Below are positions 1-4,426 of a DNA stretch of 4,426 nucleotides, one piece after another. The stretch's first letter is position 1. Each line of letters begins with the position of its first letter. Source of the stretch: a virus (Duplodnaviria; Heunggongvirae; Uroviricota; Caudoviricetes); IMG/VR virus record IMGVR_UViG_2913123054_000003, positions 1 through 4,426 of that record. One strand, given 5' to 3'. The position numbers and the translations under genes are program-made. The notes beneath the pieces are model-generated. The model made no database searches, had not been told where the DNA came from, and saw only the letters and a list, made by a program, of their open reading frames with translations.

Positions 1-405
1 AACCATCTGGCGGCGGCTATCGGGAATCGCCTGCTGAAAGATGGCCAGACAGTGATTGTGGTTACCGTGGCTGATGTCATGAGTGCTCTACACGCCAGCT
101 ATGACGACGGGCAATCAGGCGAAAAATTTTTGCGGGAACTGTGCGAAGTGGATCTGCTGGTTCTTGATGAAATTGGCATTCAGCGCGAGACAAAAAACGA
201 GCAGGTGGTGCTGCACCAGATTGTTGATCGCCGGACAGCGTCGATGCGCAGCGTGGGGATGCTGACAAACCTGAACTATGAGGCCATGAAAACATTGCTC
301 GGCGAGAGGATTATGGATCGCATGACCATGAACGGCGGGCGCTGGGTGATTTTTAACTGGGAGAGCTGGCGCCCGAATGTTGGTCAGCCAGGAATTGAAA
401 AGTAA
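1..405 (+). CDS. DnaC-like replication protein (helicase loader), 5'-truncated by window edge; C-terminal ~134 aa present
   Basis: Frame 1 is open from base 1 to TAA at 403-405. Translation ([29 protein letters not shown]...[70 protein letters not shown]...) aligns by eye with the C-terminal half of E. coli DnaC as I recall it, including the Walker B-like DLLVLDEIG and the MLTN / LLGERxMDRM / WVIFNW blocks. Confidence 0.88.
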
Positions 406-427
406 TTTTTACCGGGAGGAAATTTTA

Positions 428-1177
428 ATGGAAACCGTTTTTGATGCACTGAAAGCAATGGGAAAAGCCACGTCGGTAGAACTGGCAGCGCGACTTGATA
501 TCAGTCGTGAAGAAGTGCTGAACGAGCTGTGGGAACTGAAAAAGGCTGGCTTCGTTGATAAAAGCGTATACACCTGGCGTGTGGCTGATAACAACGTTCA
601 GCAGGAACAGCCAGCACTGCCGGAAGAAACCACTACGGCAACAGTGACGAAAATTTCGGAGAGCGATTTAACTTCGACGATTGAACAACGTGGCCCACAA
701 ACGGCGGATGAACTGGCTACGCTGTTCGGTACAACATCCCGCAAAGTGGCTTCAACGCTGGCAATGGCAATCAGCAAAGGTCGTCTGATTCGCGTTAATC
801 AGAACGGTAAATTTCGTTACTGCATACCGGGCGAAAAAATTAACGATATGAGCGCGCAAAGTACTGCACTGGTGCAAGTGGGCTCGGACGCTGACAAAAA
901 CGAAAAACAGAGCGATCGCAATCGTTTTTCGCCAACAAAAAGACATGAGCAGAGCGAAGAAACTGTAGCAGACATTGTGCAGTCGCTGCCATCGTTTACC
1001 GAAACGCGAGCGGATGACCTCGTTCTGCCATCGCTGCATCTGGCAAGCCGCGAACTGCGTCGGGCGAAAGGCCATGTCCAGAAGTGGGAGCGTGTCTGCG
1101 CCGCGCTGCGAGAGTTGAACAAGCACCGGGATATTATCGCCCAGCTTTGCCAGGAGGCAACCAGTGAGCAAGATTGA
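428..1177 (+). CDS. Prophage protein with two tandem winged-helix-like modules (resembles DUF1627-family proteins found next to prophage replication genes); 249 aa
   Basis: ATG at 428 preceded by GGAGG (415-419) with 8-nt spacing; the track's upstream ATG at 377 lies inside the dnaC-like gene and has no SD. Two similar segments ([46 protein letters not shown] and [40 protein letters not shown]) look like HTH/winged-helix units. Stop TGA at 1175-1177. Confidence 0.75.
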
Positions 1178-1185
1178 CTACCAGG
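1153..1185 (+). repeat. Gene-junction linker repeat, copy 1 (33 bp: SD + GTG start + first codons of downstream gene / last codons of upstream gene)
   Basis: ggaggcaaccagtgagcaagattgactaccagg matches 1609-1641 at 31/33 positions. Confidence 0.85.
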
Positions 1186-1370
1186 AATTGGCTGCTGCTA
1201 ACGCTTTCTTGGCGGATGTGCGGGCTGGGGCGTTTAACGACCTTTGCGCGGCGTTTGTCAGGCACGCAAAAATTGCAGGACTGGACGATGGCGGTCTCGT
1301 TACGGTGAAAGAAGCGACTGATGCGTTGCTGCACTGTGCAGAACAGCTTCGGGAGGGATTCAAGCAATGA
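1164..1370 (+). CDS. Small protein (68 aa) carrying the Ea22-like leader (MSKIDYQEL) joined to a segment resembling the C-terminal module of the downstream 213-aa Ea22-like protein
   Basis: GTG start at 1164 with AGGAGG (1152-1157) 6 nt upstream; overlaps the upstream stop by 14 nt. AFLADVRAG...[10 protein letters not shown] resembles AFLAEVRAQG...ICDELAAQLRKG near the C-terminus of the 1620..2261 protein. Stop TGA at 1368-1370 overlaps the next ATG (ATGA). Confidence 0.6.
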
Positions 1371-1633
1371 GTGAATCAAAATGCCAGGTTTATGGCAACA
1401 AGATAGAACCGTGTACGGCCCTGGCAAAATCCCTTGAGCATGATGCTGAATACACGACGCGAAAAGGTTTGCTGATATACAAAATCTATAACCATGAATT
1501 AATTCATTCACAAGACCTGATCATGCTGCGGTCAGGCGAGTTTTCTAAATCGCCGATTCGAATTTCATTTTGCCCGTTCTGTGGTGAAAGTCTGAAAACG
1601 TGGGAAGCGGAGGCAACCAGTGAGCAAAATTAA
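1367..1633 (+). CDS. Small Cys-rich protein, putative zinc-ribbon (88 aa)
   Basis: ATG at 1367 overlaps the upstream stop (ATGA); GGGAGGG at 1351-1357. Cys pattern C6, C16 ... C69-x2-C72 (FCPFCG). C-terminus EATSEQN repeats the C-terminus (EATSEQD) of the 428..1177 protein. Confidence 0.7.
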   Translation: MSESKCQVYGNKIEPCTALAKSLEHDAEYTTRKGLLIYKIYNHELIHSQDLIMLRSGEFSKSPIRISFCPFCGESLKTWEAEATSEQN

Positions 1634-1641
1634 CTACCAGG
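1609..1641 (+). repeat. Gene-junction linker repeat, copy 2
   Basis: ggaggcaaccagtgagcaaaattaactaccagg; differs from copy 1 at two positions (g/a, g/a). Same 14-nt overlap geometry between stop and GTG start. Confidence 0.85.
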
Positions 1642-2261
1642 TACTACGTGAGATAGCAAAACAGGCAACACAGGGCGAATGGGTCGCATTTATTTCGACG
1701 GGTACTGGTACGTATGCGGTGCATACGCCCGGTGATAAACGATGTGAAGACGTTATCAAATGGACCGGCTTTGACGGACAGAAAAACGCAGAGAACAACG
1801 CTCGTTATATCGCAGCTTTCAACCCTGCAGTAGTGCAGGCACTGCTGGATGAGCGGGAAGCCCAAAGCAAACGCATTGCAGAGATGGAGACTAATCTTGC
1901 GGCGCTGGCAGCGGAGAATGCGAGACTGAAGGTGATGTGTGAGGACCGCCGCAGGTTCATCATGAAAGGGGTGCAACTGGGGTATATCAAGGTGCCAAAA
2001 GCGGAAACAGATCCGGACCTTGAGACAATTCGTATTGCTATATCACCACAAAAGCCCATTCCAGCCACCGATGCTTTTTTGGCTGAAGTAAGGGCGCAGG
2101 GGGTAGAGATGATGCGCGAACACCCATCAATCAAACTTTGCTCTTTGACGCACATATGTGATGAGTTAGCCGCCCAGCTTCGCAAAGGAGAGCTGCATAT
2201 GATGTTTGACGCTGGCATTCACATCAAAGGAGAAGAGCATGGAAATAAAACCAGAAGATGA
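1620..2261 (+). CDS. Ead/Ea22-like family prophage protein with central coiled coil (213 aa)
   Basis: GTG start at 1620 with GGAGG (1609-1613) 6 nt upstream, inside a 33-bp repeat of the 1153-1185 junction. N-terminus MSKINYQVLREIAKQATQGEW and the IAAFNPAVVQALLDEREAQSKRIAEMETNLAALAAENARLK heptad-like stretch fit my recollection of Ead/Ea22-like proteins. Stop TGA at 2259-2261. Confidence 0.72.
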   Translation: MSKINYQVLREIAKQATQGEWVAFISTGTGTYAVHTPGDKRCEDVIKWTGFDGQKNAENNARYIAAFNPAVVQALLDEREAQSKRIAEMETNLAALAAENARLKVMCEDRRRFIMKGVQLGYIKVPKAETDPDLETIRIAISPQKPIPATDAFLAEVRAQGVEMMREHPSIKLCSLTHICDELAAQLRKGELHMMFDAGIHIKGEEHGNKTRR

Positions 2262-2595
2262 GTTAAGTAATATTGTTTTATTTCCGGTAAAAGAGGATGA
2301 CCCACGTAATCAGGTTAATTTTCTTTATGAGCCATCGGAAAGACCATATTGCCATCATGCCTCTGTCCGGGTTGACGAAAAAGAGCGTCAGGTCCGCTGT
2401 AAAATCTGCGGTGCAGTTGTGGAGCCATTTGACTGGATGCTCTCTGTGGCGAAAAGAGAAACCAGACTGGCAGATGATGTAAGGCTATTGCTCCAGGAGG
2501 AACAGGAAAGGCGAAAAAATATAGAAAAGCTAATTCAGATTGAGCGTAACGCGAAAGCGCGGATACGCAGAGCGACAAAATCCAGAACTGAATAA
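2239..2595 (+). CDS. Hypothetical Cys/His-containing protein, possible zinc-binding, with basic coiled-coil C-terminus (118 aa)
   Basis: ATG at 2239 (MEIKPEDEL...) with AGGAG at 2228-2232, 6-nt spacing; preferred over the track's ATG at 2206, which has no SD. Overlaps the upstream gene by 23 nt. Motif YCHH...x14...CKIC. Stop TAA at 2593-2595. Confidence 0.7.
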   Translation: MEIKPEDELSNIVLFPVKEDDPRNQVNFLYEPSERPYCHHASVRVDEKERQVRCKICGAVVEPFDWMLSVAKRETRLADDVRLLLQEEQERRKNIEKLIQIERNAKARIRRATKSRTE

Positions 2596-2661
2596 TTAAA
2601 TTTAGTGCTGTAAATAAAGTTTAATCCTTAACCGGAGGGATTTCTTCACCCTCAAAACATC

Positions 2662-2695
2662 AGGAGGCCGCCCGAAAGGGCGGTAATGAAAAATG
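2662..2695 (+). promoter_or_regulatory. Translation-initiation region with a GNRA hairpin between the SD and the start codon
   Basis: AGGAGG at 2662-2667 is followed directly by a perfect 6-bp stem CCGCCC (2668-2673) / GGGCGG (2678-2683) closing a GAAA loop (2674-2677), then 9 nt to ATG 2693. Linear SD-ATG distance is 25 nt; folded, it is about 9 nt. No U-run follows, so it is not a canonical intrinsic terminator. Confidence 0.45.
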
Positions 2696-3208
2696 ACAGA
2701 ATTAACCAAAGAGCAATTAATCGAAGAAGCCAAATTAAAAATAGCGATTGCGAAATGCCACCCCAATTCAGGGATGGCACGGGTAGAGGGCGAGTTATTC
2801 AAAATTGCACTGGCATCGCTGGAAGCAGAACCGATAGCGTGGGTATGCGGAGAAAACATAATCCTGTTTAATCCTGACACAGTTGAAGCATATGCAAAAC
2901 GTGCGGAGATATCACCTAAACCACTATTCGCCGCCCCGCCAGTGCTACCTGATAGACCGGTAGTGTCGCTGGAAGCAGAGCCGGTTGTAGACAGCGAGTG
3001 GTGGACGCTCTTACGGCAGTTCCTGATTGAACTTCAGGATCGCCGCAAAAACAGCATTTCTGAATCTGGAATCCGTGCTGAAACCCTGAACGATTTAATA
3101 CGACATATTGACAGAAACCTGGATATTGACGCGATGAAATCGCCGTTTGAACTGTCATCTGAAATTGTGGATTACGTTAATAAGCAACTGCGCAAGGAGA
3201 ATGCGTAA
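2693..3208 (+). CDS. Hypothetical prophage protein (171 aa) with an N-terminal module shared with the downstream DUF551-like protein
   Basis: ATG at 2693; long ORF with enterobacterial-like codon usage. Shares FKIALASLEAEPIAW and LFAAPP with the 3797..4297 protein; SLEAEP recurs internally (VVSLEAEPVV). Stop TAA at 3206-3208 overlaps the next ATG (TAATG). Confidence 0.75.
   Translation: MTELTKEQLIEEAKLKIAIAKCHPNSGMARVEGELFKIALASLEAEPIAWVCGENIILFNPDTVEAYAKRAEISPKPLFAAPPVLPDRPVVSLEAEPVVDSEWWTLLRQFLIELQDRRKNSISESGIRAETLNDLIRHIDRNLDIDAMKSPFELSSEIVDYVNKQLRKENA
2804..2832 (+). repeat. Module repeat copy A encoding IALASLEAEP (29 bp)
   Basis: attgcactggcatcgctggaagcagaacc matches 3911-3939 at 26/29. 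A 17-bp sub-copy (tcgctggaagcagagcc) recurs at 2966-2982 inside the same gene. Confidence 0.75.
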
Positions 3209-3384
3209 TGCAGGTGGCATTTGTTGGCTTATTACCGCACCCGATCCGCCTTTGGGCGGATATGTCACTCATAAAATCGCATTTTTTTACTACTGATGGC
3301 GGCATCCCGGCACCAAAGCGCCGCCATACAGGTATTGCAGCGGCACGACGTGCAGCAAAGAAACGCAGGAGAGCAAAACGATGA
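3208..3384 (+). CDS. Small hypothetical protein (58 aa) with strongly basic C-terminus; not in the ORF track (below length cutoff)
   Basis: ATG at 3208 overlapping the upstream TAA; GGAG at 3196-3199, 8-nt spacing. My translation: MQVAFVGLLPHPIRLWADMSLIKSHFFTTDGGIPAPKRRHTGIAAARRAAKKRRRAKR. Stop TGA at 3382-3384 overlaps the next ATG at 3381 (ATGA). Contains two GC-rich inverted repeats, so the region could instead be structured non-coding RNA. Confidence 0.35.
   Translation: MQVAFVGLLPHPIRLWADMSLIKSHFFTTDGGIPAPKRRHTGIAAARRAAKKRRRAKR
3244..3261. other. GC-rich inverted repeat (7-bp stem ATCCGCC/GGCGGAT, 4-nt loop)
   Basis: Perfect complementarity read directly from the sequence. The nearest T-run (3283-3289) is about 21 nt downstream, so it is not a canonical terminator. 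Confidence 0.5.
3296..3327. other. GC-rich inverted repeat (8-bp stem ATGGCGGC/GCCGCCAT, 16-nt loop)
   Basis: Perfect 8-bp arms with the same GGCGG/CCGCC core as the hairpins at 2668-2683 and 3244-3261. Confidence 0.45.
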
Positions 3385-3575
3385 AAAACCGTAAAGCAAA
3401 GATTCTGTTAGCTCGCAGAAACGGTGTTGGGGTCTGGCGATGGTTGAGGATTAGTAACAGACGAGTGAGGTTGACGGGGTGTTGCGGGGTGATGGGTCAC
3501 AGCTGTTGCAAAAAGCCCAGCGCGGCACAAAACCGCTGGAGAAATCACAGTTCTAAGCAAATTAAATGGGAGTGA
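3381..3575 (+). CDS. Small basic Arg/Trp/Cys-rich hypothetical protein (64 aa)
   Basis: ATG at 3381 with AGGAG at 3367-3371, 9-nt spacing; coupled to both neighbours (ATGA upstream, 1-nt gap downstream). Rich in rare Arg/Gly codons (AGA, AGG, CGA, GGG), so coding status is uncertain. Confidence 0.35.
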   Translation: MKNRKAKILLARRNGVGVWRWLRISNRRVRLTGCCGVMGHSCCKKPSAAQNRWRNHSSKQIKWE

Positions 3576-3576
3576 T

Positions 3577-3795
3577 ATGACTACACTATTCAGGAAAAAT
3601 TATCCGCGAAAGAGCAGAGCAACAGAATTCCTGTTTCTCATTCTGTTTATCGTGTTGATGACACCGATATTCCCGCTAATTTTTGTCTGGGTAATCGGGA
3701 AAATAATTGAGCCAGTTATTGAATTGTATAACGACGTGGTATGGGCGTCGTTCAACACACTGCACAATAAAATTAATCCGTATAAGGAAAACTGA
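3577..3795 (+). CDS. Small membrane protein (72 aa) with one predicted transmembrane helix
   Basis: ATG at 3577 one nt after the upstream TGA; GGGAG at 3568-3572 (short 4-nt spacing). Hydrophobic stretch FLFLILFIVLMTPIFPLIFVWVIG. Visibly more AT-rich than flanking genes. Stop TGA at 3793-3795, 1 nt before the next ATG. Confidence 0.5.
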   Translation: MTTLFRKNYPRKSRATEFLFLILFIVLMTPIFPLIFVWVIGKIIEPVIELYNDVVWASFNTLHNKINPYKEN

Positions 3796-3796
3796 T

Positions 3797-4297
3797 ATGG
3801 CAACTATTACCAGAGAAAGCGCAGAGATTAAATCATTCATCACTGGTTTTCTGAGCGATTCGGCGCACGATAACCAATCCTCAAACAGCCTGCTTGCCAA
3901 TGTGTTTCGTATTGCGCTGGCATCGTTGGAAGCAGAGCCAGTGGCATATCAGTATCGCCAGTGGGATGCAGAATATGATGAATGGGGAGAATGGGAAGAT
4001 TGCGGAGAATGCGTTTACGAAGGATTTGTTGAGGAAGAGAAATGTCAGGGGGCAGGTGTTCAGACCCGTAAGCTATATGCCGCGCCGCCAATTTCGGTAA
4101 CTCCGGATGGTTGGATAAGCCGTAGTGAGCGAATGCCGAACGACGCGCAGTGGTGCGTAGTGAACACAGAATACGGGTATTACGTGCAATGCTGGTCTGA
4201 AGGTCAAGGGTGGCTTGGTGATGATATCAGTATCCCTGAATGCGATGTAATCAATTGGATGCCTCTACCAGAACCGCCGCAGGAGGTGAATCAATGA
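3797..4297 (+). CDS. DUF551-like prophage protein (166 aa) with N-terminal IALASLEAEP module
   Basis: ATG at 3797 with AAGGA at 3785-3789, 7-nt spacing; the track's ATG at 3707 lies inside the upstream gene. C-terminal DGWISRSERMPNDAQWCVV...CDVINWMPLPEPP matches my recollection of the DUF551 signature (WIS..ER.P ... W.PLPEPP). Stop TGA at 4295-4297 overlaps the next ATG. Confidence 0.8.
   Translation: MATITRESAEIKSFITGFLSDSAHDNQSSNSLLANVFRIALASLEAEPVAYQYRQWDAEYDEWGEWEDCGECVYEGFVEEEKCQGAGVQTRKLYAAPPISVTPDGWISRSERMPNDAQWCVVNTEYGYYVQCWSEGQGWLGDDISIPECDVINWMPLPEPPQEVNQ
3911..3939 (+). repeat. Module repeat copy B encoding IALASLEAEP (29 bp), in the DUF551-like gene
   Basis: attgcgctggcatcgttggaagcagagcc; 26/29 identical to 2804-2832. 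Confidence 0.75.
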
Positions 4298-4377
4298 CCT
4301 GGCCTGAAGCATTCACAACGGTAGGAATTGCAATGGTGGTGGCGCTGGTGGTGTATTCGATTTGCCGCTGGGGATAA
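4294..4377 (+). CDS. Very small hydrophobic peptide (27 aa), single predicted TM helix; not in the ORF track
   Basis: ATG at 4294 overlapping the upstream stop (ATGA); strong AGGAGG at 4281-4286, 7-nt spacing. My translation: MTWPEAFTTVGIAMVVALVVYSICRWG, stop TAA at 4375-4377. Confidence 0.35.
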   Translation: MTWPEAFTTVGIAMVVALVVYSICRWG

Positions 4378-4426
4378 AAACGATTTGCGGGAAAAGGATA
4401 GTTAAGTAGAATTGCTGCGGGTGCTT

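Follow-up and report, generated by a model that had tools for sequence, protein, structure and literature searches.

As summarized in PMC3233612 and PMC2327257, the modular theory of phage evolution (Susskind & Botstein 1978; Clark et al. 2001, HK620) holds that boundary or linker sequences target homologous recombination. The linkers of lambdoid phages are described there as short conserved sequences at gene boundaries that some related phages share and that have non-homologous modules on either side. We analyzed a 4,426-nt stretch of a Caudoviricetes genome (IMG/VR record IMGVR_UViG_2913123054_000003, positions 1 to 4,426; henceforth the window), which represents the early genes of a prophage of Rac or lambdoid type. 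Two of its gene junctions share a 33-bp sequence, which a first-pass annotation had proposed to be a module-boundary sequence that mediates exchange in mosaic genomes. The proposal is supported by the reassortment of flanks around this sequence and by breakpoints at its edges, and we estimate a probability of about 80% that whole gene cassettes are swapped in and out there, which would make the locus a clear example of a proposed route to phage mosaicism. The idea of exchange at boundaries applies here, although it is not new, being an established model for lambdoid phages.

Compared with the lambdoid linkers, the element is not intergenic but is an overlapping unit of stop codon, Shine-Dalgarno sequence (SD), start codon and first codons. 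It serves two upstream frames and is found in tandem arrays, and comparison has yielded one relative with an empty site and another that carries the cassette in other flanks. Variants of Ea22 are known to combine a common amino-terminal segment and a coiled coil with unrelated C-terminal domains, including a portable DUF551 (PMC10834534). The 213-aa protein encoded in the window fits this pattern of the mosaic Ea22/Ead genes of lambda, P22 and Stx phages (PF13935). Whereas that literature concerns protein-level mosaicism in the exo-xis (early-left) region, here we describe a DNA-level junction that includes the tail of the upstream gene, and the genes come after the DnaC-like and DUF1627 genes in the replication region of a Rac-type prophage. 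"Homologous recombination (HR) traces" flank ~30% of mosaics (PMC3945230); those are stretches of partial identity found on realignment, in contrast to the defined and recurrent junction motif of this locus. Relaxed recombination by Rad52-like recombinases (Martinsohn et al. 2008; De Paepe et al. 2014) provides enzymology able to use such patches, since these phage enzymes perform exchanges on short, diverged homologies (PMC3945230, PMC2327257). The locus also resembles translationally coupled overlapping genes (ATGA/GTGA and longer overlaps) in that the stop lies 4 or 14 nt past the start and the SD lies within the upstream coding sequence; the difference is that one conserved sequence serves two alternative upstream frames. 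The element is a well-documented further case of the known linker or boundary kind and not a new kind of system. Because HK620 carries the junction, at a position corresponding to the hkaH/hkaG (ead/Ea22-like) junction, the latter may already be among the linker examples of Clark et al. 2001.

The window contains the following junction elements and adjoining genes.

1153-1185, + strand: linker copy 1, core 33-mer, with a GGAGG SD, a 6-nt spacer, GTG at 1164 and TGA at 1175-1177 (repeat search, open reading frames (ORFs))
1135-1197, + strand: extended match of copy 1 to the junction profile (nhmmer, 143-junction profile, E 4.5e-15)
1609-1641, + strand: linker copy 2, core 33-mer, with a GGAGG SD, GTG at 1620 and TAA at 1631-1633 (repeat search, ORFs)
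1592-1669, + strand: extended match of copy 2 to the junction profile (nhmmer, E 3.5e-17)
2165-2190, + strand: third, left-half-only junction copy (GCCGCCCAGCTTCGCAAAGGAG, encoding ..AAQLRKGE; nhmmer, E 0.024, and alignment)
428-1177, + strand: DUF1627 gene (YdaW-like, N-terminal helix-turn-helix (HTH); Pfam PF07789, E 5.6e-65; phrog_630)
1164-1370, + strand: 68-aa mini-gene with GTG start at 1164 (phrog_27745, E 1.5e-39)
1367-1633, + strand: 88-aa putative zinc-ribbon gene (phrog_4030, E 7.4e-42)
1620-2261, + strand: 213-aa Ead/Ea22-like gene with GTG start at 1620 (Pfam PF13935 Ead_Ea22, E 5.4e-26, residues 2-104)

The two core copies form a direct repeat with a spacing of 456 nt and are identical at 31 of 33 positions (94%). 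They differ at 1172/1628 and 1176/1632, and their longest uninterrupted identity is only 19 bp. A search of the window that allowed three mismatches found the 33-mer at these two sites only, and no match was obtained in 200 dinucleotide shuffles. At either copy GGAGG lies 6 nt before the GTG and the upstream stop lies 11-13 nt into the downstream gene, giving a stop/start overlap of 14 nt. The first-pass description of a repeat with an SD, a GTG start and a 14-nt overlap at two junctions is thus confirmed. The upstream-most junction ORF (377/428-1177) has the C-terminus ..EATSEQD, its TGA occupying 1175-1177, and the 88-aa gene ends in ..EATSEQN with the TAA at 1631-1633. The Pfam DUF1627 domain stops at residue 239 of 249, so that the last ~10 codons lie outside the domain. 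We read these codons as supplied by the linker, and likewise the last 7 codons (EATSEQN) of the 88-aa gene as supplied by copy 2. The same 88-aa zinc-ribbon gene in another locus (L132) terminates in ..LKTWK, ahead of the SD.

Beyond the 33 nt, copies 1 and 2 cannot be aligned on either side. As had been claimed, the upstream genes are unrelated, one encoding a DUF1627 protein with only weak HTH matches at its N-terminus and the other a zinc-ribbon-like 88-aa protein of CxxC type whose Pfam match is sub-threshold; both gene labels hold. The broader claim that the flanking genes are unrelated is correct for the sequences outside the linker, but both downstream genes come from the Ea22 pool and share its head. 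The direct orientation and the short spacing of 456 bp might suggest that local tandem duplication or mis-assembly produced the second copy. This is extremely unlikely, and we regard it as effectively refuted: the two copies have unrelated sequences on their left and likewise on their right, and the order linker-cassette-linker recurs in an independent IMG/VR contig. Moreover, 44 of 167 viral loci hold two or more copies, full or half, which in every case share one strand and mostly lie 260-800 bp apart.

These loci come from two scans of IMG/VR, one with a pattern spanning SD and start (GGAGGCAACCAGTGAGCAA) and the other with the coding head alone (GTGAGCAARATTRAYTAYCARG). Including the two copies of the window, the sample comprises 172 junctions from 167 viral loci; 145 of these junctions are unique over -200..+300 relative to the GTG. 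The profile used to search the window spans -36..+52. When the junctions are anchored on the GTG, conservation rises steeply at ~-14 and decays by ~+49, with near-random flanks beyond. We interpret the 33-mer as the core of a ~50-65 bp island that holds the ribosome-binding site and the first codons of ead/Ea22-like genes, a gene pool spread over lambdoid, Rac-like and P22-like prophages and over phage-plasmids. The 33-bp element first described stands as this core, but the element that is conserved family-wide is larger (~-14..+49) and the window holds the additional left-half copy at 2165-2190. In most junctions the island extends leftward into a conserved ..AQLRKGGNQ tail, and the downstream gene almost always starts MSKI[DN]YQ(A/V/K/E)LRE.. 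before continuing into one of many divergent bodies. At copy 2 the full conserved Ea22 head (MSKINYQVLREIAKQAT..) reaches ~1669-1682. Separately, in L002, L048 and L053/L067/L115 genes of non-Ea22 type follow the SD plus GTGAGCAA, with the joint at ~+8, inside the island; an example of such a partner is a 103-aa predicted membrane protein that starts MSNYLYWSG...

On the upstream side, an ORF of at least 50 aa stops within the linker in 159 of the 165 junctions with enough upstream sequence. In 96 junctions this ORF ends in ..[A/E]QLRKGGNQ, with its TGA inside GTGA and a 4-nt overlap. In 63 junctions, including both copies in the window, it is in the other frame and ends in ..EATSEQ[D/N/H], with the stop at +11 and a 14-nt overlap. 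An initial reading of the upstream contexts as mostly non-coding was wrong, as a single frame had been inspected and the other frame has an ORF ending in GTGA. The upstream partners are diverse and include DUF1627, zinc-ribbon, Ea22-like and several 66-100 aa proteins, a likely methyltransferase and others. A single DNA sequence thus ends upstream genes in either of two alternative frames and starts the next gene.

Conservation of this kind could be explained by function alone. Under this explanation, the island is an initiation region plus an essential N-terminal peptide, and the joints are illegitimate, random and filtered by selection (the Hendrix/Juhala model), with no preferred crossover. 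Consistent with it, the downstream gene is nearly always Ea22-like, the island coincides with the SD, the start and the conserved head that opens Pfam Ead_Ea22, third-codon positions in the island are more variable than first and second positions, and the left-edge positions vary between upstream partners. The literature also reports that most phage mosaic joints lack a conserved boundary sequence (PMC3233612, PMC2327257). However, the 11 nt that precede the GTG equal the coding head in conservation, with at most two mismatches to GGAGGCAACCA in 126 of the 128 junctions found with the coding-only pattern, and they are kept at the nucleotide level in three upstream reading-frame contexts.

Nucleotide-level conservation of this non-coding or overlapping segment across contexts could instead point to a cis-acting regulatory element of the Ea22 genes (an RNA structure, a site for a small RNA or protein, or a translational operator), to which the mosaicism would be incidental. 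The same explanation could accommodate the codon for Ile-4 (+9..+11; linker positions +9..+13 are window 1173-1177 and 1629-1633), which is always ATT in the scan that left these bases unconstrained. Residue 5 is D or N through GAY or AAY, and the overlapping stop of the upstream frame is consequently always TGA or TAA. Other synonymous sites vary by 8-19%, counts that ignore kinship among the sequences. The invariance of ATT may reflect selection that keeps the upstream-frame stop. We consider a regulatory element very unlikely. Rfam gave no match at E ≤ 1 over the whole window, the 33-mer and its 66-nt contexts fold worse than shuffles, neither copy has a promoter- or terminator-like site on the + strand, and the flanks that a larger structure would require are unrelated. 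Nor do the copies qualify as integron attC-like sites, as there is no inverted repeat at either copy, folding is worse than in shuffles, and the ORFs of the window include no integrase.

The case for exchange at the island rests on the partners of the junctions and on the places where similarity ends. We clustered the flanks (-170..-20 and +55..+255) of the 145 unique junctions and obtained 34 upstream and 25 downstream clusters in 84 combinations. At least two partner clusters were found for 14 of the 17 multi-member upstream clusters and for 11 of the 14 downstream clusters. Neighbours therefore vary on both sides, even though the 33-mer is the 5' end of Ea22 genes and might have proved to be no more than that. 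For pairs that share the upstream flank and differ downstream, similarity mostly breaks off at +27..+32 and less often at +7, +20, +40 and +49; for pairs that share the downstream flank and differ upstream, it ends mainly at -12..-17. Against the viral loci, 16 of the 43 high-scoring segment pairs (HSPs) begin exactly at 1609. A 72-nt query (1598-1669) gave the same edge in the phage and E. coli collections, where nearly all matches listed begin at query position 12, which is 1609.

Two relatives illustrate the locus without and with the cassette. As an empty-site query we used a synthetic deletion product in which window positions 880-1163 are joined to 1620-1900, and contiguous one-piece matches to it were found in E. 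coli genomes. A prophage of E. coli strain Z1323CEC0005 (L290; NZ_CP148474.1) is syntenic with the window on both sides at 92-97%, carries a single linker and lacks exactly the 456-bp interval, so that the variant envisaged by the first-pass annotation is present. The interval and the segments shared with L290 are as follows.

1186-1641: indel unit of 456 bp, made up of the two-gene cassette and one copy of the linker; not present in L290
10-587: 92.6% identity to L290
740-1185: 72% identity to L290
1609-1888: 93.6% identity to L290
2210-2840: 94.1% identity to L290
3564-3802: 92.5% identity to L290
4294-4426: 95.5% identity to L290

In L290 the DUF1627 and Ea22-like genes overlap by 14 nt across the one linker, the left flank being of the copy-1 type and the right flank of the copy-2 type, and homology on the copy-1 side stops at ~1185. 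The converse arrangement is found in an IMG/VR contig (L117) that has the order linker, mini-gene, zinc-ribbon gene, linker between unrelated neighbours. It matches the window without gaps over 1152-1682 only and is random beyond. Positions 1140-1151 all mismatch, and identity jumps from ~30% to ~99% exactly at 1152. It is 98.6% over 1152-1371 (3 mismatches), ~91% over 1372-1621 and ~75% over 1622-1682.

We thus observe a short conserved sequence at a gene boundary (island -14..+49, with both copies in the window straddling the stop/start overlap), non-homologous flanks between phages that share the linker, and transitions between high and low similarity at the linker, at 1152 in L117 and at 1185 and 1609 in L290. 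For the function-only explanation, it is difficult that the empty-site and cassette relatives show in-register, indel-free transitions exactly at the island edges, and that one upstream flank can be joined to many downstream types, and one downstream type to many upstream flanks. In addition, most island pairs are long enough for Red/RecT-type pairing. The minimal pairing segment is 23-27 bp for Red-beta and 31-34 bp for RecA (PMC3945230). Among island pairs with unrelated flanks, in a sample that was partly enriched by the seed patterns, the longest perfect match has a median of 25 bp and reaches at least 23 bp in 59% and at least 31 bp in 35%. We consider it rather unlikely that function alone explains the island; functional conservation with illegitimate joints could possibly account for part of the pattern.

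Several points weigh against exchange at the island. The sample was seeded by island patterns, so that conservation at 0-7, and partly at -11..-1, is partly by construction, and single-linkage clustering of the flanks may merge mosaics. To bring the island behind a new upstream gene, one or more events that are non-homologous or alter the frame are still required in each case, as exemplified by a 1-nt deletion in the DUF1627 tail and by the differing left-edge positions. That deletion lies in the left half of copy 1 (GCCCAGCTTTGCC-AGGAGG), by comparison with the common ..GCCCAGCTTCGCAAAGGAGG form, and looks like a change that moves the upstream frame of DUF1627 away from the common ..AQLRKGGNQ tail. 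Finally, the 19 bp of perfect identity between the two copies in the window are below the published pairing thresholds, so direct deletion between them should be rare or inefficient. It had been suggested that the repeat could mediate deletion of the 456 bp. A single-linker relative does exist, but direct deletion would be inefficient with so short an identity. For the same reason, a double crossover with a donor phage that brought in the cassette, or loss of the cassette via a better-matched ancestor, is more plausible than frequent direct deletion.

We propose the following mechanism for expression and exchange at the junction. The junction would provide a strong SD (A/GGAGG), a 6-nt spacer, the GTG and the first 7-17 codons of an Ea22-like gene. 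It would also provide stops in both other frames (TGA inside GTGA, and TGA or TAA at +11), so that any upstream gene would reach its stop within the junction, 4 or 14 nt beyond the start. A stop just past the downstream start is the classic layout for translational coupling. At both copies the genes overlap and the SD lies inside the upstream ORF, as in translationally coupled pairs, and the 33-mer folds less than its shuffled versions do (z +1.3 to +1.5), as one would expect if the ribosome-binding site is kept open. From the stop/start overlaps and the unstructured RNA we infer that translation is coupled at the junction. Since the same 35-65 bp lie between unrelated genes, often in several direct copies per genome, the island would act as a portable patch of homology. 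Recombination within it would reassort either side; phage single-strand-annealing recombinases (Red-beta, RecT, Erf or Sak4 type) are the most plausible agents, or else RecA. The two copies in the window bracket a two-gene cassette that may have been gained here or lost in relatives via linker crossover. Both the pathway and the direction (insertion or deletion) are proposed from sequence comparison.

The first gene of the cassette is the 68-aa mini-gene, a 7-codon Ea22 head fused to an Ea22-type C-terminal module. The C-terminal parts of its product match phrog_492, phrog_368 and phrog_614, which are Ea22-type PHROGs. The module closes many Ea22-like proteins, and homologous C-termini are found in L064 and L122. 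Because the 68-aa protein has no Pfam match, PF13935 included, it appears best described as an Ea22 derivative and not as a family member. By comparison, the ORF at 1620-2261 matches PF13935 with 92.3 bits against a cutoff of 27, placing it above the gathering threshold and within the family, and its 213-aa product matches 17 PHROG families, as expected of a mosaic protein. The window, L117 and L139 each carry the mini-gene intact, in three contexts, and its codon differences in L117 comprise one nonsynonymous and two synonymous changes. Given this intactness, it is probably a maintained gene, one made by internal deletion or by recombination between two islands. We note that the L139 mini-gene diverges just past ..CAGCTTCG (AEQLR; window 1339-1351) and continues with the sequence found at window ~2581-2712. 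Relative to L139, the window holds 1352-2589 as an additional block, and 6 of the 43 HSPs end at 1351. We also considered whether the junction of the mini-gene and the zinc-ribbon gene (~1339-1375) holds a degenerate linker; this was rejected, for although it is partly alignable by eye, the profile does not report it even at E ≤ 100. At this position only the protein-level ..AEQLR.. homology stands.

The third copy (2165-2190) sits in the 3' part of the Ea22-like gene, and its right half is replaced by unrelated sequence. C-termini homologous to this region end in ..ELAAQLRKGGNQ in L114, L153 and L164. Nearby, a 16-nt repeat (CAAAGGAGA..GCAT; 2183-2198 and 2225-2240) provides the SD of the next gene (ATG 2239). 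Together, the left-half copy and the 16-nt repeat suggest a linker whose right half has been replaced.

Further genes in the window include the following.

52-405: DnaC/IstB-like ATPase
2239-2595: 118-aa zinc-ribbon gene
3797-4297: DUF551 gene

Beyond 2595 there are further small genes, DUF4014 and DUF551 among them, and the window encodes no recombinase. The only sizeable intergenic gap (2596-2692) contains a GC-rich hairpin (GCCGCCCGAAAGGGCGG, ~2664-2680) just upstream of the ATG at 2693. This block is 94-96% conserved in L139, L080 and L069, and a terminator scan flags the reverse strand at 2675-2660. One Chi site (GCTGGTGG) occurs on the + strand at 4344-4351; as at least one Chi site occurs in 21 of 200 shuffles, it is not significant alone. 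With window 1000-1800 as query, no single match spans 80% or more of the interval in any of 5426 complete E. coli genomes, and with the whole window as query none spans that share in any of 50,697 phage records. Every piece taken singly is nevertheless common at 85-95% identity. The combination of modules in the window is either rare or from an unsampled host.

The window also contains short islands of other kinds. A second one, ATTGCRCTGGCATCGYTGGAAGCAGARCC (..IALASLEAEP..), occurs at 2804-2832, 2954-2982 and 3911-3939, in two genes that otherwise differ (ORF 2693-3208 and the DUF551 gene), and isolated BLAST matches of ~31-39 nt to it are found in L081 and L139. It appears to be a further island of the Ea22 gene pool, marking either intragenic recombination or a domain boundary. 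At the edges of DUF551 (4095-4140 and 4256-4290), isolated patches match L117, L076 and L139 at 88-98% over 34-46 nt, and the sequence between them is unmatched. The pattern would fit a portable DUF551 domain with a conserved island at each end. One could go further and propose that the Ea22 junction is a piece of a dedicated combinatorial shuffling grammar, kept partly by second-order selection, in which its partners would be the ..TPATDAFLAEVRAQGVE.. island, the ..ALASLEAEP.. island (three times in the window) and both DUF551 edges. The stops in both alternative frames would make the junction a frame-tolerant adaptor that terminates the upstream gene and couples the downstream one, and the advantage would be that prophages rapidly re-deal small accessory genes, possibly for host takeover or anti-defence. 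We consider such a grammar unlikely.

The island is widespread. It occurs in 242 phage records that include Stx-converting phages, HK620, ST104, mEp phages, the phage-plasmid RCS47 and a few Salmonella, Shigella and Yersinia phages. Among complete E. coli genomes it is present in 1465 of 5426 (at least 27%), at up to 11 places per genome, and 378 places are on plasmids. A degenerate pattern (GGAGNCNNCCAGTGAGCAA, 16 specified bases) searched in 596 Gb of genome contigs gave only chance matches in unrelated taxa, none of which fits the profile beyond the seed.

Whether phage mosaicism arises mainly by random illegitimate joins or by homologous exchange at short boundary sequences has long been debated. 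This locus offers a clean comparative example of the homologous route, with a ~35-65 bp junction, an empty-site relative and a cassette relative, and reassortment across hundreds of prophages. It could serve as a tractable substrate for measuring how exchange depends on homology length and on the recombinase. For annotation, the junction explains why unrelated small prophage proteins carry identical C-terminal tails (..EATSEQD and ..QLRKGGNQ).

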